Numbered from the stretch's first letter, positions 2,595 through 54,050 are shown. The stretch is DNA of 64,000 bases from an uncultured Acidimicrobiales bacterium (GCA_963739555.1 CAVUAV010000006.1:222760-286759); one strand, 5' to 3'. Program-made: numbers and translations. The notes: generated from the letters alone by a model not told the origin.

Positions 2595-3497
2595 TCAGTC
2601 CCCTCGCATGCGTGCGGCCAGTGGTCGGGCCGAATCTAGCCCTGACCGCGCGGTCAAGACAGGTCCGACCTCGGCCATCACGGCGGCGACCAGGATGAGG
2701 ACGGCCCCGCAAGCGGCCCCGAGGGTGAACCGCTCGTCGTCCACGAGGTAGGCGGCGACCGTCGCGAAGACCGGCTCGGTGAGCAGGATCAGCGAGGCGC
2801 GGGTCGCGGGGATGTGGCGCTGCGCCCACGTCCACGGGATGAGCGCGAAGGCCGACACGACGACGCCGGCGTAGAAGGCGACCCAGTAGGGCTCGCCCGT
2901 CGAGGGCAGCCCGCCGGTGAACGGCGTGAGCGCGATGCAAGGGATCGCGACGGCGGCCAGCTGGATCGCGTTGAACCGGAAGATGTCGAAGCGAGGGCCG
3001 TACTCGCCCATCTGCACGAGATGGACGGCGAACGCGACGGCGCCGAGCAGGGTGAGCACCGCGCCCCGGCCGAAGCCATCGCCTGCTCCGGTCAGCAGCG
3101 CGAGGCCGACGATCGCGACGCCGATCGCGATGACGGTGACGCGGGATGGTCTCCCGCGGCCGACCGCGAACGACACGAAGGGCACGAAGACGATCAGCAT
3201 GTAGGTGAGGAACGCCGACGTCGCGGCAGTCGTGTACTGCAGCCCGATCGTCTGGCCGAGCATCCCGGCGAGGTAGGTGAGCCCTGTGATCAGTCCGGCG
3301 CGGAGCTCACCGGGTTGCGACGGCCTCAGCAGCGCGAACGGCGCGAGGGCGAGGGTCGCGAACAGGTAGCGCAGCGCGAGGAACGGGATCGGGTCGATGT
3401 GGTCGAGCGCGCCCTTGACGACGACGAAGCTCGTGCCGAAGAGGAACGCGACGAGGACCAGGGCGGCTGCCGACAGCAGCTCGGTCCGTCGTCGCAC
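2595..3497 (-). CDS. EamA/DMT-family transporter
   Basis: 300 aa and about 10 hydrophobic segments. The N-terminus is EamA-like (LLSAAALVLVAFLFGTSFVVVKGAL). Confidence 0.8.
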   Translation of the reverse strand: MRRRTELLSAAALVLVAFLFGTSFVVVKGALDHIDPIPFLALRYLFATLALAPFALLRPSQPGELRAGLITGLTYLAGMLGQTIGLQYTTAATSAFLTYMLIVFVPFVSFAVGRGRPSRVTVIAIGVAIVGLALLTGAGDGFGRGAVLTLLGAVAFAVHLVQMGEYGPRFDIFRFNAIQLAAVAIPCIALTPFTGGLPSTGEPYWVAFYAGVVVSAFALIPWTWAQRHIPATRASLILLTEPVFATVAAYLVDDERFTLGAACGAVLILVAAVMAEVGPVLTARSGLDSARPLAARMRGD

Positions 3498-9630: not shown

Positions 9631-10005
9631 ATGAGCGACATCATCCCGGTGGTTCCGTACGAAGACATCAAGTCCGCCCACGACTTCCTTTGCGACGCGC
9701 TGCAGTTCACGTCGGCCGGTCTCTACGAGGTCGACGGCACCGTGGTGCACGGTGAGGTCCAGCTCGAGGGCCGGCGCATCTGGCTGCACGCGGCAGCGAG
9801 CGGGCTGAGCACACCGAACCAGGCCAAGGCGCAGACCGGTGGCATCGTCGTGCTCGTCGCGGACGTCGAGGCGCACTTCGCGCATGCGAAGTCCCGCGGC
9901 GCCACGATCCTCCGCGAGCCGACCGACCAGCCCTACGGCCAGCGCGAGTACGCCGTGTTGGATCCCGAAGGTCACAGCTGGTGGATCGCCACGCCCCTGA
10001 GCTGA
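9631..10005 (+). CDS. VOC/glyoxalase-bleomycin-resistance family protein
   Basis: 124 aa with the typical pattern ...HGEVQLEGRRIWLH...QREYAVLDPEGHSWWI. Confidence 0.8.
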   Translation: MSDIIPVVPYEDIKSAHDFLCDALQFTSAGLYEVDGTVVHGEVQLEGRRIWLHAAASGLSTPNQAKAQTGGIVVLVADVEAHFAHAKSRGATILREPTDQPYGQREYAVLDPEGHSWWIATPLS

Positions 10006-10019
10006 TCCAGACGCGGCAA

Positions 10020-10061
10020 CTTGCGCCTGCGGACGCCCTTTCGGGCACCCACAGGCGCAAG
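10020..10061. terminator. 10-bp-stem hairpin between convergent VOC gene and glnA
   Basis: CTTGCGCCTG (10020-10029) pairs with CAGGCGCAAG (10052-10061). Confidence 0.45.
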
Positions 10062-10081
10062 TCGAAGCGGGCTGTCAGTGC

Positions 10082-11530
10082 CTAGATGTCGTAGTAGAGC
10101 GCGAACTCGTAGGGATGCGGCCGCAGGCGCAGCGCGTCGATCTCGTTCGCGCGCTTGTACTCGATGTGCGTCTCGATCAGGTCGGACGTGAACACGCCAC
10201 CGGCGGTCAAGAACGCCTGGTCCTCCTCGAGCGCACTCAGCGACGCGTCGAGCGAGCCCGGCACCTGCGGCACCTTGGCGAGCTCCTCGGGCGGCAGGTC
10301 GTAGAGGTCCTTGTCGACCGGGGGCGGAGGCTCGATGCGGTTCTGCACGCCGTCGAGGCCGGCCATGAGCATCGCCGAGAACGCGAGGTACGCGTTCGAC
10401 GATGCGTCGGGGCAGCGGAACTCGACGCGCTTGGCCTTCGGGCTCTTCTGCGCGAGCGGGATGCGGCACGCGGCGGAACGGTTTCGCTGCGAGTACACGA
10501 GGTTCACCGGCGCCTCGTAGCCCGGCACCAGCCGCTTGTACGAGTTCGTCGTCGGTGCGGCGAACGCGAGGATCGCCGCAGCGTGATGCAGGAGCCCGCC
10601 GATGTACCAGCGCGCGATGTCGGACAGACCCGCGTAGCCGGTCTCCGAGAAGAACAGCGGGTTGCCGTCCTTCCAGAGCGACTGGTGGGTGTGCATGCCG
10701 GAGCCGTTGTCCTGGAAGATGGGCTTCGGCATGAACGTGAGCGTCTTGCCGGCCGCGTGCGCAGTGCGCTTGAGGATGTACTTGAACGTCATGAGCTGAT
10801 CGCCCATGGCGAGCAGGGTGTTGAACTTCGTGCCGATCTCGCCCTGACCAGCGGTCGCCACCTCATGGTGGTGCAGCTCGACGTCGATGCCGACCTTCTT
10901 GAGGTTCGTCGCCATCTCGGACCGAAGATCCTGGTAGTGGTCCATCGGTGGCACGGGGAAGTAGCCCTGCTTCGTCCGCGGCTTGTAGCCGAGGTTCGGC
11001 TTCTCGTCGCGGCCCGTGTTCCAGATGCCTTCGACCGAGTCGACCATGTGCATCGCGAAGTTCGGCTGATAGTCGAAGCGCACATCGTCGAAGATGAAGA
11101 ACTCGGGCTCGGGGCCGAAGTACGCCGTGTCGGCGATGCCTGTCGACGCCATGTAGGCCTCTGCCTTCGACGCGATGTACCGGGGGTCACGGCTGTAGCT
11201 CTCGCCAGTCACCGGGTCGGCCACGAAGCAGTGGATCACCAGCGTCTTGTGCTGCATGAAGGGATCGATGTACGCGGTCTCGGGATCCGGGATGAGGATC
11301 ATGTCCGACTCTTGGATCTCCTGGAACCCACGGATCGACGAGCCGTCGAAGCCGTGGCCGTCGACGAACGTGCCCTCGTTCAGCACCTCCGCGGGGATCG
11401 TCACGTGCTGCATGATCCCGGGCAGGTCGCAGAACCGGAGGTCGACGAAGTCGCACCCCTCGCTCTGGACCAGGGCGAGCACCTCGCCTGACGTGCGCTT
11501 CTCCACAGTTCCCTCCTGAGGCTGACTCAT
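10082..11530 (-). CDS. glnA: glutamine synthetase type I (beta subtype, adenylylatable)
   Basis: Intact 482 aa with GS signatures ([25 protein letters not shown]). The adenylylation motif [10 protein letters not shown] is present. Confidence 0.95.
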
Positions 11531-11655
11531 TGGTCAACTGATGCGGCCGAAACGATTGCGGGTGCCCATTTCTCAGCCGTTGCATGATTGTGAACGGCCT
11601 ATGAACTCGGCTCCCGGGTTCGATTCCGGGTCATCGAGCAAGGGAAACTAGTGCC

Positions 11656-12989
11656 ATGGAGCGCCAGCAGGACTATGTGCTGCGGACAGTCGAGGAGCGC
11701 GGTGTCCGGTTCATCTGGCTCTGGTTCACCGACGTCCTGGGTCAGCTCAAGTCGTTCGCCATCACGCCCGCCGAGCTCGAGAACGCCTTCGCCGAGGGAA
11801 TGACCTTCGACGGCTCGTCGATCGACGGGTTCTCCCGGGTGCAGGAGAGCGACGTGCTCGCCCGCCCGACCCCAACAGCTTCGAGCTGCTGCCCTGGGTC
11901 GACCCGACGGCGCCCGCCGCCCGGATGTTCTGCGACATCGCCAACCTCGACGGCTCGCCTTTCGAAGGCGACCCCCGTCAGGTGCTCAAGCGCAACCTCG
12001 ACCGGGCCCGTGAGCGGGGCTTCTCGTTCTACGTGTCGCCTGAGATGGAGTTCTTCTACTTCGAGGAGGGCGATCCCTCGAAGCCGCTGAAGATCCTCGA
12101 CAACGGCTCCTACTTCGACCTCACGACCGCCGACGTCGCCGGCGACCTGCGCAAGCGCACCGTCCAGACGCTCGAGACGATGGGCATCCCCGTCGAGTAC
12201 TCGTTCCACGAGGACAGCCCCAGCCAGCACGAGATCGACCTGCGCCACACCGACGCCCTGTCGATGGCCGACAACGTGATGACGTTCCGGCTCGTCGTGC
12301 GCGAGGCGGCCGCGTCACAGGGCGTCTACGCCACGTTCATGCCCAAGCCGCTCGAAGGCGTGCAGGGCTCGGGCATGCACACGCACATGTCGCTCTTCGA
12401 GGGCGACGAGAACGCGTTCTACGAAGGCGGCGACCCGCTCAAGCTCTCGAAGATCGCTCGTGCCTTCATCGCAGGGCTCCTCGTGCACGGACGCGAGATC
12501 ACGGCGATCACGAACCCGACGGTGAACTCCTACAAGCGGTTGATCCCCGGGTTCGAGGCGCCGGTGTACATCGCCTGGGCGCGGAACAACCGCACCGCGC
12601 TGGTGCGCATCCCGATCACGAAGTCCGGCAAAGCGGCGTCGACCCGCATCGAGTACCGCGCTCCCGACCCTGCCGCGAACCCATACCTCGCGTTCTCGGT
12701 GATGCTCGCCGCAGGCTTGAAGGGCATCGAACAGGGATACGAGCTTCCGAGTGAGGCCTCGTCGAACGTCTTCGAGCTCACCGACGAGGAACGTGCCGCC
12801 GAAGGCATCATCCAGCTGCCGCAGTCGCTCTCCGACGCGCTCGACGCGATGGCGAAGTCAGAGCTCGTCGCAGAAGCGTTGGGCGAGCACATCTTCGAGT
12901 GGTTCCTGCGCAACAAGCGCCAGGAGTGGATCGGCTACAAGACCCAGGTCACACAGTTCGAGCTCGACCGCTATCTCCGCAACCTGTAA
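11656..12989 (+). CDS. glnA2: glutamine synthetase GlnA2-type, apparent 1-nt deletion in the C-run at about 11866-11868
   Basis: The N-terminal ORF (FDGSSIDGFSRVQESDVLARP) and the C-terminal ORF (MFCDI...GSGMHTHMS...NSYKRL) join as LARPDPNSFELLPW if one C is restored. Confidence 0.9.
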
Positions 12990-13006
12990 GCGGAGGGGAA
13001 ACACAG

Positions 13007-13687
13007 ATGGAACCGCTGCTCCTGTTCCCGGATCCGCCGAACGAGGTGCTCACGCAGACCCTCGACCAGGCCGGCTACCCGTGGAAGGCCGCAGCGACCC
13101 TCGACATGGCGGCGCGCATCGAGCCTGAGGAGGGGTGGGCCGGCGCGGTGATCGATGCGACGCCCGACCCCGAGGCGGCGTTCGGCCTGTGCCGGGTGCT
13201 TCGCAAGCGTGACATCCCGCTCGAGCCGCTCCTCCTTCTGGTTCCCGCGCACCACATCGGCGATCTCGAGCTGCGCGAAGACCTCTTCGACGACTTCTGC
13301 GTCACGCCGTCGACCTCGGTCGAGCTCGAAGCGCGGCTGGAGCACCTCTTCTGGAGGAGTGGCGGAGGCACGCGTCCCGAGCTCATCGAGTACGGCGTGC
13401 TCGTGCTCAACCTCGAGACCTACCAGGCCGCGATCTCGGGCCGTCCACTCGACCTCACCTACATGGAGTACGAGCTCCTCAAGTACCTCGCATCGCATCC
13501 GGGCAAGGTGTTCACCCGCGAGACGCTGCTCTCGCGTGTGTGGGGTTACGAGTACTACGGCGGTGCCCGCACGGTCGACGTGCACATCCGGCGCCTCCGA
13601 GCCAAGCTCGGCGAGGAGCACGCAAACCTCATCCAGACCGTGCGCTCCGTGGGGTACCGGTTCGGCCAATCCCGCTGGGGGGTCTGA
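13007..13687 (+). CDS. glnR: GlnR-type orphan OmpR-family nitrogen regulator
   Basis: The ATG at 13007 follows GGAGGGG. The winged-helix region (GRPLDLTYMEYELLKYLASHPGKVFTRETLLSRVWGYEYYGGARTVDVHIRRLRAKLG) closely resembles mycobacterial GlnR as I recall it. The receiver domain is atypical. Confidence 0.85.
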   Translation: MEPLLLFPDPPNEVLTQTLDQAGYPWKAAATLDMAARIEPEEGWAGAVIDATPDPEAAFGLCRVLRKRDIPLEPLLLLVPAHHIGDLELREDLFDDFCVTPSTSVELEARLEHLFWRSGGGTRPELIEYGVLVLNLETYQAAISGRPLDLTYMEYELLKYLASHPGKVFTRETLLSRVWGYEYYGGARTVDVHIRRLRAKLGEEHANLIQTVRSVGYRFGQSRWGV

Positions 13688-42162: not shown

Positions 42163-42778
42163 GCCCGACGTCCACGAAGTAGGCCGCGGCGCTCGCCGGG
42201 TCGCGCCGCTGGTAGCCGGGGTCGAGTCGACCTGCGTACCACCCTCGGGCAAGGCGCCACAGCGTCGTGAGGTCCATGACGTAGCCCTTGTCGTGCTGCG
42301 TGCCAGTGAGCCACGCGTCGACGCAGTGCTCGTCGCAGAAGATCCGCTGGTGTCGGCACGTGTGCTCCACGTCGTCCCACATGTGTGAGACGGGCGTGAG
42401 GAAGTGCGCGACTTGAGATGCGCTCGGTGGCGCGTCGCGGCCGACCACCCACACGTGGGGGGCGGCACAAGCAGGGCACTGCGTCGACACGAGGACCTCG
42501 GGCTCGCGGTCGACGAGATGCGGCACCGCGAACGAGTCCCACGCGCAGCCTCCCCACCAGAGCGTCTCGCGGCCCATGACTGCGAAGCCGAGCGGGATGG
42601 AGGCGAACGGGTGGGCCATCACGATGCCGCCGTGCGCGTCGAGCACGACATGGCGCGCCTCGGCGAGGCGATGGATGGCACCTCTCGTAGCGTCGTCGTC
42701 CGGCAGCTCTGGCACGCGGCCGGTGTCGGCGAACGACCGGTAGATCGTGAGCCTGAGCTCCTCGTCGTCGACGGTCAC
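42122..42778 (-). CDS. alkylmercury-lyase (MerB)-like protein
   Basis: The N-terminus is HTH-like. GGCAWDSF matches the C-x-x-D catalytic pattern of MerB. Additional Cys are present (QCPAC, TCRHQRIFCDEHC). Confidence 0.6.
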   Translation of the reverse strand: MTVDDEELRLTIYRSFADTGRVPELPDDDATRGAIHRLAEARHVVLDAHGGIVMAHPFASIPLGFAVMGRETLWWGGCAWDSFAVPHLVDREPEVLVSTQCPACAAPHVWVVGRDAPPSASQVAHFLTPVSHMWDDVEHTCRHQRIFCDEHCVDAWLTGTQHDKGYVMDLTTLWRLARGWYAGRLDPGYQRRDPASAAAYFVDVGLTGSFWGLPSATT

Positions 42779-42819
42779 CTCGACTTCATAGCCGCAGCGT
42801 TGGGTGGGTACGGAAGGGC

Positions 42820-43188
42820 ATGGCCACCGTTCCCGACCATGACCTTCTCGACCTCGAACGTCAGGGGTGGACAGCGCTGACGAAGGGCGGAGATGCCGTC
42901 GCAGACTTCTACGGCCATGTGCTCGCGGAGCGAGTGCTCATGCTTCTGCCCGGCGGGATGGTGCTGAGCGATCGCGGTGCGGCGCTCGACGCGCTTCGGC
43001 TCACGAGCTGGAGTGGCTTCGAGCTGCGACCCGGCCTCGTGCAGTGGCTCGGGCCCGATGCTGCAGTCGTCGCGTACGAAGCGCGTGCCCGTCGTGGCGA
43101 CGACGAGTACCACGCGCTCTTCAGCAGCACCTACACACGGCAGAACGGCAAGTGGAAGCTGGCCGTGCACCAGCAGACGCCGTTCTGA
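42820..43188 (+). CDS. NTF2-like (DUF4440/SnoaL-type) protein
   Basis: 122 aa, ending ...YTRQNGKWKLAVHQQTPF. Confidence 0.65.
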   Translation: MATVPDHDLLDLERQGWTALTKGGDAVADFYGHVLAERVLMLLPGGMVLSDRGAALDALRLTSWSGFELRPGLVQWLGPDAAVVAYEARARRGDDEYHALFSSTYTRQNGKWKLAVHQQTPF

Positions 43189-43189
43189 G

Positions 43190-43585
43190 TCAGCCCTTGG
43201 CCGCGGCGTTCAACTTGGCTGCGTCGCGCACGAGCGCCTTGAACGCGGTCGCGTTGACCTTGTCGCCTTCGAACCAATCGATCGCGCGCCGGATGTTGCC
43301 ATCGAGGCTCGAGTTGAAGAGCTTCTTCGGGTCGGCGAGCTTCGCGCCCTTCGCGAACGTCACCTTGACTTTGTCCTTGTAGGTCTCGCCGGTGCAGATG
43401 ATGCTGCCGCTCGAGTACCACGTCGGGACGCCTCGCCACTTCCACTCTTCGGTGACGTCTGGGACCACCTCTTTGATCAGTGCCCGGACCTTCGCGAGCG
43501 TGTCGCCGCGCCAGTCTCCGAGCTCCTTGATCCTCCCGTCGATCAGCTGCGACGGTGACTTGGCGTCAGTCTTCTTCGCCGGCAT
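43190..43585 (-). CDS. DUF1801 (YdhG-like) protein, second copy in the window
   Basis: The start is at MPAKKTD. The sequence reads IDGRIKELGDWRGDTLAKVRALIKEVVPDVTEEWKWRGVPTW. Confidence 0.7.
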   Translation of the reverse strand: MPAKKTDAKSPSQLIDGRIKELGDWRGDTLAKVRALIKEVVPDVTEEWKWRGVPTWYSSGSIICTGETYKDKVKVTFAKGAKLADPKKLFNSSLDGNIRRAIDWFEGDKVNATAFKALVRDAAKLNAAAKG

Positions 43586-43661
43586 CGACGCAGAGTACGT
43601 CAGTGACAGCGGCTGTTGAGCTGCTTGTACGGTCCCTCGACCGGCAAGAGGGAGACGCGAC

Positions 43662-44378
43662 GTGCAGCTCAGCACCAAGACCGTGGGATCCGGCACGCGC
43701 TCGGCCGCACTCGTGCACGGCGCGTCGGCGTCGGGCGAGATCTGGAAGGACTTCGCCGCGATCCTCGTCGAGTCGTACGACTTCACGGTGACGCTCGTCG
43801 ATCTCCGTGGGCACGGCGACAGCCCGCGCGGCGACCGCTATCGAGTCAGCGACTTCGTAGGTGACCTCGTCGACACGCTCCCGACGGACCTCGACCTCCT
43901 CGTCGGCCAATCGCTCGGTGGCCGCGCCGGCATGCTCGCCACTCCGCAGCTGCTCCCCAAACGGTTCATCGGCCTCGACCCTGCGCTCTTCGCGTCGACC
44001 CCCGTGCGGCTGGCCCTGCGCTACTTGTCTCCCGTCATGCCTCATATGCCCGCCCGAGTGCTGCGGGTGCTGGGTGTCCCGCCGAAAGGATCGGCGCCAG
44101 GCGCACTGGAGTGCCGCCGATCGGCGTGGGACGCCTGGGACCGATCGATGATGGGGGACCTCGCCGGGAGCGTGAAGACCGAGCCCTTCCATCTCGTCGC
44201 CCCGGCTGTGCCGTCGACGTTGCTGCTCGCGGACAAGAGCCTCTTCGTTTCGCCTGCCGTGGCTGAGGAGCTTCGGTCGCTCGGATGGGATGTCCGGGTG
44301 AAGCCAGGATCGACCCACGACCTCCACCTCGAGGATCCGGCCGGTGTGATCAAGATGCTCGACGACGTTTTGCGGTGA
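43662..44378 (+). CDS. alpha/beta hydrolase
   Basis: LVHGASASG and GQSLGG. Confidence 0.75.
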   Translation: MQLSTKTVGSGTRSAALVHGASASGEIWKDFAAILVESYDFTVTLVDLRGHGDSPRGDRYRVSDFVGDLVDTLPTDLDLLVGQSLGGRAGMLATPQLLPKRFIGLDPALFASTPVRLALRYLSPVMPHMPARVLRVLGVPPKGSAPGALECRRSAWDAWDRSMMGDLAGSVKTEPFHLVAPAVPSTLLLADKSLFVSPAVAEELRSLGWDVRVKPGSTHDLHLEDPAGVIKMLDDVLR

Positions 44379-44444
44379 ACGAGACCGTTCTCGACCTCGG
44401 GCAGATAGAACGGCCGCGTCGCTCGAGCGAAGGAAGGTGACCGG

Positions 44445-45219
44445 ATGACGGCTCGCACCTCGCAGGAACGCTTGGATGGCACCGTCGCGCTCGGTGACGG
44501 GCGCGTCGAGCGGCATCGGTGCGGCCTCCGCAACAGCCCTGGCCGCTGAAGGCGCGGCGGTCGCGCTCGCTGCGCGTCGAAGAGATCGGCTCGACGCAGT
44601 TGCGGCCGACATCCGTGACGCAGGCGGCACCGCGTTGGTGCTCGAGTGCGATGTCACCGACGAAGCGCAGGCCGCGGACGCCGTCGCGCGCACTGTGGCG
44701 GAGCTCGGCCGGCTCGACACGTTGATCAACAACGCCGGCGTCATGCTCCTCGGCCCTGTGGTCGGCGCTCCGATCTCGGAGTGGCAGCAGATGGTGGAGC
44801 TGAACATCCTGGGCCTGCTCTACAGCGCCCACGCTGCGCTTCCGCATCTGCTGCAGGCGGCAGAGCAAGGCCCTCGACGCGTGGCCGACATCGTCAACAT
44901 CAGCTCGGTGGCGGGCCGCCACGCCCGCAACGGCAACGGCGTGTACAGCTTGACCAAGCATGGCGTCGGTGCGTTCAGCGAGTCGTTGCGCCAAGAGGTG
45001 ACGAAGCGCTACGTGCGCGTCTCGCTGGTCGAGCCGGGCGCCACCGCGACGGAGCTTGCGAGCCACAACCGTCCGGAGATCCTCGCGGGCATCGGCGCCC
45101 AGATCGCCCAGACCATGGACGCCGATGACATCGCGGACACGATCACGTTCATCGTCACGAGGCCGCGACACGTCACGATCAACGAGGTCCTCATCCGCCC
45201 GACGGAGCAGGAGCGCTAG
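44445..45219 (+). CDS. short-chain dehydrogenase/reductase, apparent 1-nt insertion near 44493
   Basis: The ATG follows AGGAAGG. MTARTSQERLDGTVAL joins to VTGASSGIG. The active-site motifs are NNAG and YSLTK. Confidence 0.85.
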
Positions 45220-45267
45220 CAAGTCGCTTCCATCGATGGTCCTCGGTGTCGCCATAGGGTCTGACTC

Positions 45268-46065
45268 GTGACAGCCGTGATCACCGAAACCAACGACTCC
45301 GGAAACCCAGCACTCGGCTCGAAGGCCGCGGTGGCGCTGTTCGCGGAGACGTCGCCGCGCTCGATGACCGTCTTCGGGACGGCGATCAAGACGCTGTTCC
45401 TGCTCCTCGTGCTGGTGGCTGGCGGAGCGTGGGGCTGGGCATCGGCGACCCAGCCCGTCGCCGTCGATCTCGGCACCGGTTACGCCAACACGACCGTGAC
45501 GATCCCCGGCGGTTTCTGGCTGGCCAGCTTCGGCGCCTTCCTGGTCGCGATCTTCGTGGCGGTGAACCCTCGCCGCGCCGCGTTGCTCGGCGCCGTGTAC
45601 GCGATCCTCGAGGGCTTCTGCCTCGGTGCGATCTCCGCGATGTTCGACGCGCAGACCGACGGCATCGTCGCCGCAGCGGTTCTGAGCACGGTGGCTGTGT
45701 TCCTGGCTGCGCTGATCTTGTACGTCACCCGCATCGTCAGGCCGACGCAGAAGCTCGCGTTCGCGGTGATCGTCGGGATCGGTGGCCTCTCGCTCTTGTA
45801 CCTGTTCGTGTGGGTGCTGGCGATCTTCGACTGGGGCTTCCTCTACTCAGCGCAGTTCCGCAGCATCGGGATCGTCGTGACGGTGATCGCCGTGATCCTC
45901 GCGGCGCTCTCGTTGACGCTCGACTTCGCGTTCATCGAGGGATGCGTCGATCGTGGCGCGCCGAAGTTCATGGAGTGGTACGCCGGCTACGGCCTGATGG
46001 TCACGCTCATCTGGCTCTACATCACGCTGCTGCGGCTGCTCGCACTCCTCGCCCGCAACCGATAG
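45268..46065 (+). CDS. Bax-inhibitor-1/YccA-family membrane protein
   Basis: 265 aa with 7 TM-like segments. The ORF is intact. Confidence 0.75.
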   Translation: MTAVITETNDSGNPALGSKAAVALFAETSPRSMTVFGTAIKTLFLLLVLVAGGAWGWASATQPVAVDLGTGYANTTVTIPGGFWLASFGAFLVAIFVAVNPRRAALLGAVYAILEGFCLGAISAMFDAQTDGIVAAAVLSTVAVFLAALILYVTRIVRPTQKLAFAVIVGIGGLSLLYLFVWVLAIFDWGFLYSAQFRSIGIVVTVIAVILAALSLTLDFAFIEGCVDRGAPKFMEWYAGYGLMVTLIWLYITLLRLLALLARNR

Positions 46066-46091
46066 GCGGACGAGGGGCTCATACTTGCGAG

Positions 46092-46641
46092 ATGCGGCCC
46101 CTTCGGTACTCCATCAACGTCACGTTGGACGGGTGCTGCGACCATCGGGCAATCCCCGCGGACGAAGACTTGCATCGTCACGCGGCCGAGAGCATCAGCC
46201 AGGCCGATGCCCTTCTCTTCGGCCGGGTGACGTACGAGATGATGGAGTCAGCGTGGCGGCCAGGCGGCGACTGGAGCCAGACCTGAGTGGATGGAACCCT
46301 TCGCCCAGACGATCAACGTGGCAAAGAAGTACGTCGTGTCGAGCACCCTGGAGCAAGTCGATTGGAACGTGGAGCTCGTCCGCGGAGATCTGGGCGAGGC
46401 GGTTCGGCAGCTCAAGCAGGAGTCGGGCGACGGACTGTTCGTGGGAGGGGTGACGCTCCCACTCGCGTTGACGGAGCTGGGCTTGATCGATGACTACGAG
46501 TTCGTGGTGCATCCCAGGCTCGCGGGCCACGGCCCGACGCTGTTCGCGGGGCTGTCGAAGCATGTCGACTTGAAGCTCGTGAGCCGGCTCGAGTTCGGCT
46601 CGGGGGCAGCGGCGATGCGGTACGAGCCGAGTGCGCATTGA
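46092..46641 (+). CDS. RibD-C/dihydrofolate-reductase-like protein, apparent frameshift near 46265-46285
   Basis: MRPLRYSINVTLDGCCDH...FGRVTYEMMESAW joins to PEWMEPFAQTINVAKKYVVSSTL. Confidence 0.75.
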
Positions 46642-46642
46642 C

Positions 46643-46691
46643 GTCGTAGGAAGGCGGGATTTCGAACACGTGGCCTCAGCGTCCCGAACGC
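46643..46691 (-). repeat. degenerate copy of the 3' half of tRNA-Pro (old att remnant)
   Basis: gtcgtaggaaggcgggatttcgaacacgtggcctcagcgtcccgaacgc matches the tRNA 3' half at 51173-51219 apart from a few mismatches and one indel. It begins 2 nt after the stop of the RibD-C-like gene. Confidence 0.7.
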
Positions 46692-46913
46692 GACCGAAAC
46701 GGATACCTACGAACACACGCGGGGGATCCACGCTCGTCGGACGGGTGAACGGCTGCGGGCAGGGACCTCCGGCCCTGGTCGCTCGGCTGTGAGACGTCCA
46801 TCATCGGGCCAAGGGCGACTCTGCCTTTGTACGTCAACGCATGGCCAGGAGCGATGTGAATCTCGAGCGCTTCTCGGGCCGATGTGCTCGACGAGATCGC
46901 CGAGGCTGACGAG

Positions 46914-47586
46914 GTGTGCTTCTCGGCCGAAGCGGATGTCGTCGCCGGTCTCGTGGTGGGCGCAATCGGCATCGACGCGCTTGCGCCACGTCCGTCGACG
47001 AGCCGAGCTTCCCCTGGCAGCAATACCGGTGGTGCTTGCCGCTCATCAGCTGATCGAGGCGGTGATCTGGTGGGGCCTCGACGACCAGGTGCCGAGCGCC
47101 GTCTGGCGCACTGCGCTTTGGGTGTATCTCGCGATCGCCTTCGGAGTCCTGCCCGTCCTCGTTCCCGTGGCAGTGGGTGCCCTCGAGCCGCTCGCCAATC
47201 GGCGTCGTGTTGCTGTCTTCACGGCGATCGGCGTGACAGTGGCAGTCGTGTTGATGTACGCAGTCATTCGTGGCCCGATCACCGCGACCATCGAAGGGCA
47301 CCACATCGCATACAGCGTCGATCTTTGGCACGGTGGCTTGATCGTGTTCCTCTACGCCGTTGCGACCTGCGGCTCGATGCTCGTGTCGAAGCACCAGCAC
47401 GTGCGGTGGTTCGGCATGATCAACTTCGTCGCCGTTGGCTTCCTCGCCGCGTTGAACAAGAGCGGCTTGATCTCCCTCTGGTGTGCGTGGGCCGCGGTCA
47501 CCAGCGTCGCCATCGCAGTGCATCTTCGCCGCGGCCACCGGACACCGAGCCAGCTCCCGGCGGTCCCTGATGGCGTGTCCAGCTGA
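46914..47586 (+). CDS. multi-TM membrane protein (DUF6629-like by recollection), apparent 1-nt insertion near 46978
   Basis: A GTG start gives MCFSAEADVVAGLVVGAIGIDAL, which joins to RHVRRRAELPLAAIPVVLAAHQLIEAVIWW. Confidence 0.55.
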
Positions 47587-47598
47587 CGATTCGGCCGC

Positions 47599-47643
47599 TG
47601 GTCGGGAAGGCGGGATTTGAACCCGCGGCCTCAGCGTCCCGAA
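47599..47643 (-). repeat. exact 45-nt duplicate of the tRNA-Pro 3' half (att site)
   Basis: tggtcgggaaggcgggatttgaacccgcggcctcagcgtcccgaa is identical to 51171-51215. Confidence 0.9.
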
Positions 47644-47760
47644 TGCGAACGAGCCGGTTGCATACGAACGTAGGCGAACGATGCCAGCAGGTCAGAACGG
47701 GTCAGCGACCGACGATGAACGCGAGCGATCCCCGGCGGATGCGTCATGAATGTGCCATCG

Positions 47761-48198
47761 TCACGAAGGACCGGAGTCGGAGACCCTGCGCAGCAGCTCC
47801 TCTGGATCCAGCACGGCGACCGAGAATCGGCCACACGCCTTCGTCAGCCCCTTGTCTCCAGTCACGACCGGGATGCCCTCGCGTCGAGCGGTGAGGAGGA
47901 CAAGGGCGTCTCTCGGGCCGATGGTGGGTGCGAGAGCGTCAAAGATCGTGACCTCCTCGTTGGTCGCGAAGTTGGCCATACCGAGGCGAGACACGCCGAT
48001 GACGAATCCCGCCGTGGTTGTCCACCTCAGCGCAAGACGCAGAAATCGCTCTCGCTTCGCAGCCGGAGCGTTGAGGACCTCGTCGTATTGCGCGTGGGTC
48101 ACAACAAGCGCCAAGGCGTCGCGCTGTACGGCCGCCTCGACCTTTGAGAGCACGTCGTCGTCGAGAGCGAGAGCGTCGAAGCCATTCGAGTCAAGCAT
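47761..48198 (-). CDS. PIN-like (VapC-like) nuclease domain protein
   Basis: The start is at MLDSNGFDAL. The C-terminal RDALVLLTARREGIPVVTGDKG resembles the PIN D..T.D segment. GC3 is lower than in the core genes. Confidence 0.45.
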   Translation of the reverse strand: MLDSNGFDALALDDDVLSKVEAAVQRDALALVVTHAQYDEVLNAPAAKRERFLRLALRWTTTAGFVIGVSRLGMANFATNEEVTIFDALAPTIGPRDALVLLTARREGIPVVTGDKGLTKACGRFSVAVLDPEELLRRVSDSGPS

Positions 48199-48284
48199 GA
48201 CGCTCAGCACTCGGGCGACGGTAGGCGGACCGAACGGCCCGAGTCTCACGTTGCTGAACGCCGGAGACGTCCCTCGACGTTTCG

Positions 48285-48450
48285 GGCGGGAACGGTGGGG
48301 CTCGCCGGGCGACGGCACGTCCCGCGCCGGCGAGCGTTGGATGCGGTGGAGGGCAGACCCGCATGGGTCACAGCGACGTGAGGCGCACGCTGGCCGTATA
48401 CGCGCAAGCGACCGACGATCGCGACCGAGCTGCCGCGGACGCGCGGCGCG
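48285..48450 (+). pseudogene. tyrosine-recombinase C-terminal remnant
   Basis: MGHSDVRRTLAVYAQATDDRDRAAADA matches the LGHS....T...Y motif that holds the catalytic Tyr. Nothing like the rest of an integrase lies upstream. Confidence 0.45.
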
Positions 48451-48613
48451 TTCTACGGGCCACGGTCGATCGCTGTCAGCTGATCCTCTGTCGCGCTGAG
48501 GACCCACGAATCCCGAGATCCATTCGGAGAGACACCCGCGGCGTCAGGTCTGCTGGTGTAGGAGACCGCGAGCATTCGCCAACGGCTCCGTGAACCAGGC
48601 CGCCTTCCGTGGG

Positions 48614-49037
48614 TCATCTCGCACCGAGCGCGTTGTGGAATTTGCCGAAGCCGTCGATGACTCTCTCGGCGAGGTCTCGAAGGTCCCAAGCAGCGTTGAG
48701 GCGTACTCGCTGAATCGAGACATGCATAAGGCGCTTGTTGATGTCAGCTCGCTCATCGTCGGTGAGGATTGGCGTCGGTACCCACGACTTCAGGTAGTCG
48801 AGAGCAAACACGTCATCCATGAAACGCTCGGAGCGACCCAGGAAGTCGTCAAGGTTCCCGCGCGTGGAGTAGTGCCGACTCCAAGAGGGCGTACGCCAAC
48901 CACTCGACGGTTGCGGTCCAGGAACCGGTGACTGCAACCATCTTCAGTTCGTAGCCCACTGCCTCTACTAGCTCTCGGAGTTGCGCATCCGTGGGCCCGA
49001 CTGGTGTGGGCACGGTGGAGGTCATGTCCGTCATCAT
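48614..49037 (-). CDS. hypothetical protein, apparent frameshift near 48850
   Basis: Two overlapping ORFs join as ...ALLESALLHARNLDDFLGRSERF. Confidence 0.4.
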
Positions 49038-49173
49038 CGTGCGGGCGTCGCTGTCGGCTCTCGCATATCAGCGGTGTTCTTGTACGGAACGTCGTCCAAC
49101 TTCGGCCGGGGAGTCGGCACTCGAAAGTCGGATCGCTGTACCGGTTTGCGCACGCCCGTGCGTGTAGTGAGAT

Positions 49174-49707
49174 GTGGACCTGCGTGGGGTCGGGGCTGAC
49201 GAGCTGGAAGCATTGCCTCTGGTAGCCGTCGCGCGTTCGTTCGATGCCGAGTACGCCGAGAGGTACGCGCCGCTGGTGCGGCTGCTGTGGTCGCTGACCG
49301 GCAGTTGGGCCGTCGCTGAGGAGATCGCGCAGGAGGCGTTTGTCGCCGCGTACCGAAGCTGGGCAACGGTGTCGGTGCTTGACCGTTCGGATCTGTGGAT
49401 CAGGCGGGCCGCGATCAACCGGGCGGTCTCGGTACACCGCAAGCTCGTGAGTGAGGCCGCCGCGCTCACAAGAGTGCGGGCGCCGTACGCAGTGGAACCC
49501 AGATTCTCGGGGGAGGACGAGCAGCTCTGGAGGGCAGTGCGAAGACTTCCTCGCCGCCAGGCCGCTGCGGTCGTTCTGTCCACGGTAGAGGGACTCACGG
49601 CAGAGGAGATCGGCTCGGTCCTGGGCTGCTCGGGCGAGACGGCGCGTACACACATCAGACGCGGACTCGCGAAGCTACGCGACCGTTTCCGGGAGGGTGA
49701 CGAATGA
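49174..49707 (+). CDS. ECF-type sigma-70 factor
   Basis: Region 2 is AEEIAQEAFVAAYRSW. Region 4 is LPRRQAAAVVLSTVEGLTAEEIGSVLGCSGETARTHIRRGLAKLR. Confidence 0.8.
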   Translation: MDLRGVGADELEALPLVAVARSFDAEYAERYAPLVRLLWSLTGSWAVAEEIAQEAFVAAYRSWATVSVLDRSDLWIRRAAINRAVSVHRKLVSEAAALTRVRAPYAVEPRFSGEDEQLWRAVRRLPRRQAAAVVLSTVEGLTAEEIGSVLGCSGETARTHIRRGLAKLRDRFREGDE

Positions 49708-50561
49708 GTGTGACCGAACGCCTGGCGGGCGCCGCTGACCGCCTCACCGAGCTCGAAGTGACAGTCCCCGACGCTGGGCGCGTCCTGCGGCGGAGCCGAC
49801 GGCGACGCGGATCCGTCTACGGCGTTGTAGTCGCCGCTCTCGCGCTCGGCGGAATCGGCGTCGTCGCGACATCCCGCACCGACCACGCAACGGTCGCGAC
49901 GAGCTTCACGCTGACCGCCCTCCCCGACGCACCGATCGGCCTCACGAGAAGCGACGCTTTTTGGCCGGACGTCACACACCGTCCGGACTCTCCCGTCGCG
50001 CTCGGGCGAGCACTCGCCGCTTTCCTCGGATGGGGCGACTCAGCGAAAGTCGAGCTCGTCTGTTCTCCCTATAAGGCGCCCTACAGGGATGCCGACAACA
50101 TCAGTGACGAGGCGCGGCACGCCTGGAGCGTCCCAAAGGATTGTGAGCAACTCGGGGGCGACAACGACGGGAAAACGGTGCAACTGCGCATCTCATCCCC
50201 CGCCACCGGCGCCGAGATGAGTGCTCGCGCCTTTCCCACCGCCGAAGCGACCGAGTCGGGGTGGGCCTTCATCGAAGTCGGGATCCCTCCCCTCGGCACG
50301 GTCCGCGCTGACGGGCCGGAGTCCGCGACCCTGGCAAATTTCTCGTCCCCGCCCGGGACTCAGGAAGTCAGATGGTGGGCCGCAACCCACGACGGCGAAC
50401 TCTCTGGTGCCGGCCTGCGGGAAGCACGTTCCGTATCCAAGCGTCGGCAGAGTCGATCGCGTCCGTCCTCATCGTCTTTGTCGATGCGCGCGGAAACGCG
50501 CTCGGGGCCCAAGGCGGGCCGATCAGAAGGCCGCTGGGGGACACTGCATCGTGGTGGCTGA
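49704..50561 (+). CDS. single-TM protein coupled to the ECF sigma factor (anti-sigma candidate); 3' part frame-disrupted
   Basis: It overlaps the sigma gene by 4 nt. The TM segment is VYGVVVAALALGGIGVVA. Confidence 0.45.
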   Translation: MSVTERLAGAADRLTELEVTVPDAGRVLRRSRRRRGSVYGVVVAALALGGIGVVATSRTDHATVATSFTLTALPDAPIGLTRSDAFWPDVTHRPDSPVALGRALAAFLGWGDSAKVELVCSPYKAPYRDADNISDEARHAWSVPKDCEQLGGDNDGKTVQLRISSPATGAEMSARAFPTAEATESGWAFIEVGIPPLGTVRADGPESATLANFSSPPGTQEVRWWAATHDGELSGAGLREARSVSKRRQSRSRPSSSSLSMRAETRSGPKAGRSEGRWGTLHRGG

Positions 50562-50604
50562 GCGGCACGAGCGCGAGCCTCGACTCTGCGACGGTGACCT
50601 CACC

Positions 50605-51062
50605 ATGCAGTTCGCCTACCGCCGCGCGGTGCTCGCTCCGCTACGCACAGACGACACCTGGCAAATCGGCCCCGATGGAGTCCTCTACACGGTGGAGCGA
50701 ATGTCCGCTTCCGCTTCGGTGGAGCTGTCACGTGGGCCGATACACGGACCTGGACGACACACTGCTCACGGACCGTGTCGTTTGGGTCCTCATCGAGAAG
50801 GACGTGACTCTGGGCTCGAGCCACTCAAGTGGGCGACGTGGTGCACATCGTCGACGCGCACACCGGAGAGGAGCTCCTGACGTTCGACGGTCCAGGCGGA
50901 TGCGACATGCCCGATCGAACTCGGAGCGATGCCCGACCGCTGCGGCAACCCGTGAACCATCTTCGACTCACAAGTAAGCGCGAGCACCGCGAGACGACCA
51001 CCGGGACGAAGGCCGCGAAACGCGCCGGGAGCGCGCGCGTCAGGTGCCGGCTTCCCACGTGA
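50605..51062 (+). pseudogene. degraded small ORF (pieces in three frames)
   Basis: MQFAYRRAVLAPLRTDDTWQIGPDGVLYTVER / YTDLDDTLLTDRVVWVLIEKDV / GDVVHIVDAHTGEELLTFDG. Confidence 0.3.
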
Positions 51063-51170
51063 ACGGGACCCGCCCAGGCCGCTCTCACCCCTCAATGCGT
51101 CATATTCGTGCCATCGCACCCGCGTAGCTCAGATCTCGGCGGCACTGTGAGGCGCCTGACCTGCGGCGAC

Positions 51171-51248
51171 CTGGTCGGGAAGGCGGGATTTGAACCCGCG
51201 GCCTCAGCGTCCCGAACGCTGCGCGCTAACCAAGCTGCGCTACTTCCC
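51171..51248 (-). tRNA. tRNA-Pro (anticodon CGG), CCA encoded
   Basis: The reverse complement CGGGAAGTAGCGCAGCTTGGTTAGCGCGCAGCGTTCGGGACGCTGAGGCCGCGGGTTCAAATCCCGCCTTCCCGACCA folds by hand into a cloverleaf. It has a 7-bp acceptor stem, GCGC D stem, CAGCG/CGCTG anticodon stem, loop TTCGGGA and GCGGG/CCCGC T stem. Confidence 0.9.
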
Positions 51249-51401
51249 GGTAGGCCGGAGAGCGTAGCCGCCCCTGCGAGCGTCTCCATCGGGGTTCCCG
51301 GTCGCAATACCCGCCAGATTTGACGGCTTTCGCGACTCAGAACGGCGGAGGGTGGCGGTCAGTCGAACCGACTCGACCGCCGGCTGCGGCATCGTTGCGA
51401 C

Positions 51402-51770: not shown

Positions 51771-54050
<2,280 letters not shown>

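Follow-up and report, generated by a model that had tools for sequence, protein, structure and literature searches.

Integration at tRNA genes is a well-known route by which bacterial genomes gain foreign DNA, and a 64-kb stretch of the genome of an uncultured Acidimicrobiales bacterium (hereafter called the window) very probably carries a decayed product of this process. Specifically, we interpret positions 46643-51249 as a tandem array of remnants of nonautonomous integrative elements that accumulated at the 3′ end of a tRNA-Pro(CGG) gene. The window is part of a high-GC (68.3%), long-read metagenome-assembled genome (MAG), and all window-based searches described below were limited to these 64 kb of the host genome. 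The array consists of a distal layer of 0.9 kb (46692-47597) and one or more proximal layers that together span 3.5 kb (47644-51170). These intervals are delimited by the tRNA gene and by two displaced copies of its 3′ part, each of which is read as an attachment (att) site and is followed by an element-side arm.

51172-51249, minus strand: intact tRNA-Pro(CGG), identified by ARAGORN and matched by Rfam RF00005 at 67.9 bits.
51172-51216: proximal att core, comprising the 3′ 46 nt of the tRNA when flanking base 51171 is included; part of the intact tRNA.
47598-47643: copy 2, which repeats the tRNA 3′ part (CCA through anticodon loop); att site separating the two intervals.
46643-46691: copy 3, which repeats the tRNA 3′ part in degraded form; outer (distal) att site.
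46692-46760: arm of the distal interval on its element side, with homology to the arm that follows copy 2.
47644-47760: element-side arm of the proximal interval; the motif GCGTCATGAATGTGCCATC occupies 47741-47759.
50970-51171: arm of the proximal interval on the tRNA side; it includes GCGTCATATTCGTGCCATC at 51097-51115, a motif lying 55 nt from the tRNA 3′ end.

The mechanism we propose begins with a tyrosine integrase, which would recombine the chromosomal tRNA gene (attB) with the attachment site of an element (attP) that includes 46-49 nt copied from the tRNA 3′ part. The element would provide a new 3′ part, such that the tRNA remains intact, and the old 3′ part would be displaced to the far end of the insert. 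Repeated integration into the regenerated tRNA would then stack the inserts, with a partial tRNA copy between each. In the array, the distal layer is now represented by a DUF6629 gene alone, and the proximal layer or layers retain a PIN-domain gene, the C terminus of an integrase, a split open reading frame (ORF), an intact extracytoplasmic function (ECF) sigma gene and its broken partner. We infer the order of the integration events, with the distal layer as the older, from this arrangement.

Partial tRNA copies and a precise insertion

A first-pass annotation, made from the sequence alone, had placed a complete tRNA-Pro(CGG) at 51171-51248 on the minus strand. ARAGORN and Rfam agree on this gene with coordinates shifted by 1 nt, and ARAGORN finds it to be the single tRNA in the window. 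The annotation had further claimed that the 3′ half recurs exactly at 47599-47643 and that a third copy carrying mismatches and an indel lies at 46643-46691, and alignment bears out both statements. Copy 2 is identical to 51171-51216 at all 46 positions (48 of 49 when the alignment is extended). Copy 3 is 93% identical over the 43 nt of 46649-46691 with one gap, or 73% over the full 49 nt of 46643-46691 when no gap is permitted. Both repeats have the same orientation as the 3′ part of the tRNA, and the 64 kb contain no other match to the core of comparable quality, as the next best spans 16 nt (E = 0.1-0.2). As is characteristic of genomic islands, direct repeats of a tRNA 3′ part bound the insert and an intact tRNA stands at one end.

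The arms that follow copies 2 and 3 also resemble each other, as had been noted by eye. From 47644 onward, the arm of copy 2 matches that of copy 3 at 19 of 26 positions in register (36 of 60 when extended). When 26-mers of the window were paired at random, 19 or more matches arose with a frequency of 2.5e-5.

Related loci were obtained by scanning species-representative genomes for the aspartokinase gene, which yielded 80 loci (designated by L numbers, as are the additional contigs described below). The ask-asd-MazG-tRNA-Pro synteny is kept in the two closest of these, L001 (93.5% nucleotide identity in the core genes) and L002 (~82-83%), and the tRNA-Pro of the window is 100% identical to that of both. 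In each of these relatives the DUF6629 gene adjoins the intact tRNA-Pro, and the segment corresponding to 47644-51170 is missing, exactly at the repeat. The flank ending in ...GACGATTCGGCCGC passes straight into TGGTCGGG of the full tRNA in L001 and L002, whereas in the window the same flank joins copy 2 and then 3.5 kb that the two relatives lack. Because the flank joins the tRNA directly in these genomes, 47644-51170 is a 3.5-kb insertion bounded by 46-nt direct repeats. The first-pass annotation had staked its reading on the existence of such empty-site variants, and for the proximal interval they are indeed found.

Two further contigs, reached through homologues of the PIN gene, are informative about the site. 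The first is L091 (core 93.7% identical), which has no DUF6629 gene at all and thus is missing the distal layer. The order there is tRNA-Pro, a 2434-bp insert encoding a methyltransferase and a PIN protein, and a displaced partial tRNA copy. This insert belongs to the same family as the proximal insert of the window, occupying the same site with different cargo. The second is L090, a 5.1-kb contig from another assembly, wherein the order is RibD_C-like gene, copy 3, DUF6629, copy 2 and insert, and which terminates exactly at the tRNA boundary. The L090 homologue of copy 3 is a near-perfect match to the core, with one mismatch. Given that the same array is present in this independently assembled contig, the array is not an assembly artefact.

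We therefore regard it as very improbable that the partial tRNA copies are pseudogene fragments created by segmental duplication or are products of faulty assembly of a metagenome bin. The window does come from a long-read MAG with visible indel errors, and duplication can in principle yield partial copies of a tRNA. Against this explanation, the copies stop at the same tRNA position and continue into homologous arms that are not derived from the tRNA, the insertion is precise relative to two relatives, L090 and L091 are independent assemblies that have the same architecture, and a viral contig (see below) carries the same core beside a homologous integrase.

Base composition likewise distinguishes the array from its surroundings. 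For the proximal interval, the GC content at third codon positions (GC3) amounts to 0.70-0.77. The DUF6629 gene has an intermediate value of 0.79, and asd, ask, MazG and the other conserved flank genes have 0.88-0.92. The excess of A/T-ending codons between the copies that had been perceived on first inspection is thus reflected in a lower GC3, and the island as a whole (0.70-0.79) is set apart from the conserved flanks. An interval with the composition of its flanks, which the annotation had named as a result that would refute its reading, is thus not what is seen. Total GC content is 65.7% in the proximal interval versus 68.3% for the window.

The integrase remnant, a probable crossover region and a possible third layer

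Within the proximal interval is a short coding remnant that links the array to a tyrosine integrase.

48360-48461, plus strand: C-terminal remnant of a tyrosine integrase, with the catalytic Tyr codon at 48399-48401.

The remnant spans ~35 codons, and the N-terminal ~300 residues of the enzyme are absent. A possible HxxR stretch is located upstream in another frame, from ~48290. A motif of the form GHS..T..Y occurs once in the six frames of the window, at the remnant, and the top three matches to the remnant in PHROGs are integrase families (best E = 0.0012). Prior to the comparison described next, the remnant had no Pfam match, its tblastn matches to phages and plasmids were not significant, and a search of 5.8 billion proteins gave no match.

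When viral contigs were scanned with 30 nt of the att core, the sole match was L101, an IMG/VR viral contig that carries a capsid-like ORF and a tyrosine integrase (PF22022, PF00589). The remnant and the C terminus of the L101 integrase are identical at 24 of 36 residues (67%, E = 7e-10), which upholds the earlier identification of a lone tyrosine-recombinase C-terminal remnant at about 48285-48450. In L101 the tRNA-Pro core lies directly after the integrase stop codon and there is no intact tRNA on the contig, and the L101 core is consequently attP-like. These findings indicate that the remnant is real and that it derives, as its similarity to L101 suggests, from an integrase family tied to this att site. 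The integrase of this viral contig likely represents the type of enzyme involved. Used as a query against viral contigs, the L101 integrase recovered only L101 itself and a partial overlapping contig, and no complete parent element. Two Pfam-confirmed integrases from another locus, L096, were also considered as relatives of the remnant and were rejected because they have no similarity to it. As probes, the L096 proteins detected no integrase in the window or in other fetched loci except L096.

An alignment of the cores provides information about the position of strand exchange. All intact tRNAs read CCCGAACGC, and the element-side junctions of the proximal type (copy 2 of the window, copy 2 of L090, the displaced copy of L091 and the L101 attP) read CCCGAATGC. 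A second variant is evident in L091, where the intact tRNA has GCGACC and the displaced copy has the ancestral GCGGCC, as in other genomes. Therefore, the 3′ part of the working tRNA in L091 is derived from the element. Strand exchange was probably confined to the segment flanked by these two variants, which falls in the anticodon stem-loop.

The arms themselves share a short sequence motif. The element-side arm of the proximal interval (47644-47760) aligns with the distal arm of the L091 insert over ~110 nt (z = 37.8), and the motif GCGyCAT-N6-GCCATs, which was defined after seeing the data, is present in both arms of both inserts. Its family has seven matches in the 1.6 Mb of fetched sequence versus 0.33 expected, and all seven are in the arms of inserts flanked by tRNAs. 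Moreover, the offset of the motif from the tRNA 3′ end is similar in the window (55 nt), in L091 (57 nt) and in L087 (58 nt), where an insert resides at a tRNA-Thr gene. Sequences conforming to GCGyCAT-N6-GCCATs are candidate arm-type binding sites for the integrase. Only this short motif recurs between the window and L087, as overall homology between the arms of their inserts was not above a shuffle null. A junction pattern that combines the anticodon-loop end with the arm consensus had no matches in viral contigs, and six matches in metagenome contigs were dismissed as chance occurrences, since they fall inside coding genes with no tRNA half upstream.

The position of the integrase remnant raises the possibility that the proximal interval is itself composite. 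Downstream of the remnant is a stretch that resembles the other cores.

48514-48556: probable fourth att core, strongly degraded and lacking ~9 nt internally.

Here, ACCCGCGGCgTCAG-GTC at 48534 lies 135 nt after the Tyr codon (48399), and the distance from the Tyr codon to the core sequence ACCCGCGG in L101 is likewise 135 nt (3150 to 3285). MAFFT aligns this stretch with the other cores across the 9-nt gap, and just 0.7% of window segments do as well in a comparison with the core. If it is a true core, the array would record three integrations, with the proximal interval divided into two layers. The first of these would comprise an arm, the PIN gene, the integrase remnant and the degraded core, an assignment to which we attach slightly less than even weight. 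The second would comprise the split ORF, the sigma cassette and the proximal arm, for which our confidence is the same. In addition to the shared spacing, this reading is favored by the fact that the succession of arm, cargo, integrase and core matches the order of integrase and attP in L101. Conversely, the core match is short (17 of 18 positions plus 6 of 9 across the 9-nt gap), and its score is equaled by 0.7% of random window segments. Furthermore, the L091 insert has a left arm with a PIN gene and a right-arm motif with no core between them, and copy 2, which would be the older site, is perfectly preserved.

Integration modules of temperate phages at tRNA genes, in which the integrase gene adjoins attP, are represented here by L101. 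The array and the L101 module are alike in having the same core with its CCCGAATGC end, homologous integrase C termini and an equal spacing from Tyr codon to core. They differ in that the window arms cannot be aligned with those of L101. The viral contig has a repeat of its own, CGCGCGATGGACGCGCGATGG, on both sides of its core (3218-3248 and 3402-3432), with one copy ~25-45 nt before the core, inside the integrase gene's 3′ end, and the other ~95 nt after it. The geometry of these repeats is like that of the arm motif in the window, and their sequence and orientation are different.

The distal layer, the outer flank and evidence of decay

The outer portion of the array and the adjoining flank contain one gene each.

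46884-47586, plus strand: DUF6629 membrane-protein gene (Pfam PF20334, E = 2.3e-33), the sole gene of the distal interval.
46089-46641, plus strand: RibD_C-like gene flanking the array, with a Pfam PF01872 match on its C-terminal part only; read in two frames.

The first-pass annotation had described the older event as reduced to one membrane-protein gene, which agrees with the finding that the distal interval holds DUF6629 alone. Homology with L002 begins at 46694, directly to the right of copy 3, and to the left of this point L002 has a different gene. The DUF6629 segment sits beside the tRNA in both L001 and L002, such that these genomes provide no empty site for the distal layer. Because they also lack a recognisable copy 3, the case for a distal-layer integration rests on copy 3 in the window, the homology of the arms, the identity boundary with L090 (see below) and the absence of the layer from L091. 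Copy 3, the arm homology, the L002 boundary and the L091 absence appear to mark the DUF6629 segment as a separate layer bounded by att sites.

The RibD_C-like gene is not a conserved core gene. It has no tblastn match in any of the 80 loci of relatives, and it is missing at this locus from L001, L002 and L091. The first-pass annotation had stated that copy 3 begins 2 nt after the last core gene. This spacing is correct relative to the RibD_C-like stop codon (46639-46641), whereas the description of that gene as part of the core does not hold. 

The stretch to the left of copy 3 (42166-46641), which includes hydrolase, SDR, BI-1-like and RibD_C-like genes, is patchy among relatives. Positions 43602-46753 are missing from L001 and 42166-45249 from L002, which has a 531-aa glycosyltransferase-like ORF at the position of the RibD_C-like gene, and L091 retains just a hydrolase fragment. 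Consequently, the variable region beside tRNA-Pro extends over ~9 kb rather than 4.6 kb.

A comparison of the window with L090 suggests how the layers may have traveled. The two are 99-100% identical from inside copy 3 (~46670) to 49141, and 91-100% identical over 50972-51170. In the flank, the RibD_C-like genes are only 70-79% identical, with several indels. High identity thus sets in inside copy 3, where an att boundary would place it, and this pattern would fit recent movement of the composite as a unit. One could therefore propose that the array arrived in a single step, as a preformed composite that moved via the att sites at its two outer ends, namely copy 3 and the core on the tRNA side. 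Transfer of a whole composite has been observed for tandems of a cis-mobilizable element (CIME) and an integrative and conjugative element (ICE) (PMC5704250), and the abrupt change in identity between composite and flank is in accord with such an event. We nevertheless consider this history unlikely. The layers occur apart from each other at this site, with DUF6629 alone in L001 and L002 and an insert of the proximal type alone in L091. Also, L090 is only a 5-kb contig, and host-genome divergence is beyond its reach; the RibD_C-like gene may be a fast-evolving pseudogene; and homologous recombination between strains could also spread the block. Regardless, the proposal concerns only the history of the array, and the mechanism of site-specific integration would be unchanged.

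The interval had also been described as containing several shattered ORFs, a claim that holds for some genes and not for others. Compared with both L001 and L002, conserved genes of the window contain single-base insertions at 51990 (an insertion that splits asd), 57422, 57817 and 63678, mostly in GCGC-rich contexts and at a rate of ~1 per 3 kb. The DUF6629 gene is read in two frames owing to one extra base at 46983 that is absent from L001, L002 and L090, and the gene is intact in L002 (252 aa) and L090 (228 aa). Likewise, the frameshift at 46296 in the RibD_C-like gene is a single-base insertion specific to the window. Because these lesions are of the same kind as the one that splits asd, the frameshifts at 46983 and 46296 are most likely assembly errors. 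By contrast, the partner of the sigma gene is truly degraded, as is the integrase with its lost N-terminal portion. A 425-aa homologue of the partner is present in L087 next to a 96%-identical sigma gene, and identity between the two loci falls from 97% in the sigma gene to 64-81% in the partner, with many non-triplet indels within 0.7 kb. Tracking of the coding phase by GC3 periodicity, as a means of counting frameshifts, was too noisy in the low-GC3 island. In a long-read MAG where even asd is frameshifted, calls of “pseudogene” need a second assembly.

Several observations weigh against interpreting the array as stacked remnants of integrative elements. Integrase probes and a six-frame motif scan reveal no intact integrase in the 64-kb window. 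The overall GC content of the proximal interval is only at the 8th percentile of 3.5-kb windows. The fully empty state, in which the outer flank would lie directly on the tRNA, is found in no relative examined, and the first-pass suggestion that the RibD_C-like gene might abut tRNA-Pro in related genomes likewise found no example. L001 and L002 have the DUF6629 layer but no recognisable copy 3. At ~1 assembly indel per 3 kb, individual frameshifts are unreliable evidence of decay. Finally, copy 2 is perfect while the putative fourth core, which would be younger or of the same age, is badly degraded, and this does not fit a simple three-step history. Even so, the earlier proposal that related elements integrated successively into the same tRNA is supported by the empty sites, the arm homology, the integrase homology and the base composition.

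Cargo genes and parallels with known elements

The remaining features of the proximal interval are its cargo genes.

47761-48198, minus strand: PIN-domain gene, intact, 145 aa (Pfam PF01850, 24.7 bits versus a cut-off of 23.6).
48614-49037, minus strand: ORF with no family match, split over two frames.
49136-50969, plus strand: ECF sigma cassette, with the sigma gene at 49174-49707 and its partner from 49704 to ~50960.

The Pfam match substantiates the PIN-like gene of the first-pass annotation. Homologues that are 99% (L090) and 68% (L091) identical have the same place beside the distal arm, as in the window. Upstream of the PIN start (48198) is the integrase remnant on the opposite strand, and no small antitoxin-like ORF with a family match is present there, unlike the arrangement of a VapC-type toxin-antitoxin pair. 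More distant PIN homologues (49-57% identical; L092-L095 and L098-L100) are located beside a convergent 96-aa XRE/HTH_3 gene in a conserved context without tRNAs, and the PIN gene therefore is not restricted to tRNA islands. The ORF at 48614-49037 has no significant match to Pfam, PHROGs or NCBIfam families, and it is split identically in L090.

The intact sigma gene belongs to the SigE family. Its Pfam matches (PF04542, PF08281 and PF04545) correspond to Sigma70 regions 2 and 4 with no region 3, and together with NCBIfam TIGR02983 (E = 3.9e-30) they confirm the ECF sigma gene recognized previously. The partner, taken for an anti-sigma gene in the first-pass annotation, begins at the sigma stop codon, where the two genes overlap in ATGA (49704-49707). 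By eye, the partner has a hydrophobic stretch after ~40 residues, and neither it nor the intact 425-aa homologue from L087 has a Pfam, NCBIfam or PHROGs family.

The boundaries of the cassette are identical in comparisons with L087 (9917-11822), L088 (7845-8349) and L090. In L090, which is otherwise 99-100% identical to the window, the cassette is a divergent allele, and the sigma gene of the window shares 95-97% identity with that of the L087 insert at tRNA-Thr. This distribution suggests that cassettes may be exchanged between paralogous islands. We also considered whether the cassette is a site-specific mobile cassette in its own right and rejected this idea, since the sharp ends are equally explained by recombination between paralogous copies whose homology stops there.

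Related cassettes reside near several other tRNAs. The L087 insert (9637-13519) is 3.76 kb long, is bounded by exact 45-nt repeats of the tRNA-Thr(CGT) 3′ half, carries the sigma gene with its intact partner and is without an integrase. It also encodes a 448-aa protein with an N-terminal region that by eye is PD-(D/E)xK-like and with an MGMT-type DNA-binding domain (PF01035). In L088 (7755-8349), another Acidimicrobiales MAG, the cassette is found 13-15 nt past a tRNA-Pro 3′ end and is inverted relative to that of the window. This contig breaks off within the sigma gene, as might happen at a repeat left unresolved by the assembler. In L089, a homologue of the cassette lies 1.6 kb downstream of tRNA-Ser. 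Lastly, a 58%-identical sigma gene and a partner are found in L103 (8001-15753) inside a complete integrative element beside tRNA-Arg(CCT), which codes for an integrase of 386 aa with an arm-binding domain, for an HTH_17 protein resembling an excisionase and for a TrwC relaxase. The L103 element is a candidate model for the original form of the decayed inserts. Given its presence at tRNA-Thr, tRNA-Pro, tRNA-Ser and tRNA-Arg, the sigma cassette turns up repeatedly as cargo of the tRNA-integrating elements of these bacteria.

Small inserts (2.4-3.8 kb) that lack an integrase, are flanked by 45-48-nt repeats of a tRNA 3′ part and share the arm motif at a fixed offset from the tRNA end seem, on the strength of these common sequences, to form a family, whose sites are tRNA-Pro (window, L090 and L091) and tRNA-Thr (L087). 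From such patterns we infer that the inserts could still be mobile in trans at present. In the strongest version of this idea, the inserts would not be dead scars at all, and instead would be hitchhikers that are excised, transferred and reintegrated in trans by integrases of full-size elements or phages, like those of L101 or L103. We judge this to be unlikely. It does fit the data in that the 4.5-kb composite is near-identical in two genomes despite a diverged flank, and in that the inserts carry an exchangeable ECF sigma cassette, seen again on islands at four different tRNAs.

Stacked remnants at tRNA genes have precedents. CIMEs have been defined as elements that have lost their integration and transfer genes, have kept attL and attR, and are mobilised in cis after accretion with a functional element (PMC5704250). 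For ICESt1-related elements of Streptococcus thermophilus, CIMEs are described as undergoing accretion with related elements that arrive at a target gene's 3′ end (PMC5704250). Among actinomycetes, tandem elements with a common 44-bp att site are known, pSAM2 integrates into Pro-tRNA and an island with 43-bp repeats is found at Pro-tRNA (PMC2440964).

In the window, copy 2 matches the tRNA-side core over 46 nt and both arms carry the motif, as expected if attL and attR are kept, and scans of the interval ORFs with Pfam, PHROGs and NCBIfam reveal no relaxase, coupling protein or replication gene. The leftovers of the array, with no working integrase or transfer gene, thus fit the definition of a CIME-like remnant. 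As in accretion of the ICESt1 type, decayed remnants that retain att sites are stacked at the target, and the composite may move as a unit. The array differs from those tandems in having an uncultured Acidimicrobiales bacterium as its host and tRNA-Pro(CGG) as its target. Moreover, each of its layers is decayed with no functional partner element, and the layers are very small (0.9 and 3.5 kb) and are known here from sequence alone.

The array also resembles actinomycete ICEs (AICEs) of the pSAM2/pMEA type in its tRNA 3′-end target, in the att identity segment (~43-58 bp in AICEs, 46-49 nt in the window) and in the preservation of the tRNA. However, the ORFs of 46643-51170 include no RepSA/RepAM, Tra/FtsK-like or Kor/Pra genes, and because these replication and transfer modules are not found, the array is not an AICE. 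Furthermore, the closest relative of the window integrase is on a viral contig with a capsid-like gene (L101), and not on an AICE. Apart from the integrase, the array is not recognisable as a prophage remnant either, since the interval has no phage structural or lysis genes and its PHROGs matches are to integrases only.

Thus, the tRNA-Pro array matches the known pattern of accretion and CIME formation by an ordinary mechanism, and it leaves current understanding of integrative elements unchanged. It does offer a multi-genome example of a tRNA gene that serves as a landing pad in uncultured soil Acidimicrobiales, with at least four occupancy states of the site among five related assemblies. 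Comparison of these sequences reveals the att core, an approximate crossover region and a candidate arm motif, and islands at several tRNAs carry an ECF sigma cassette as traveling cargo.

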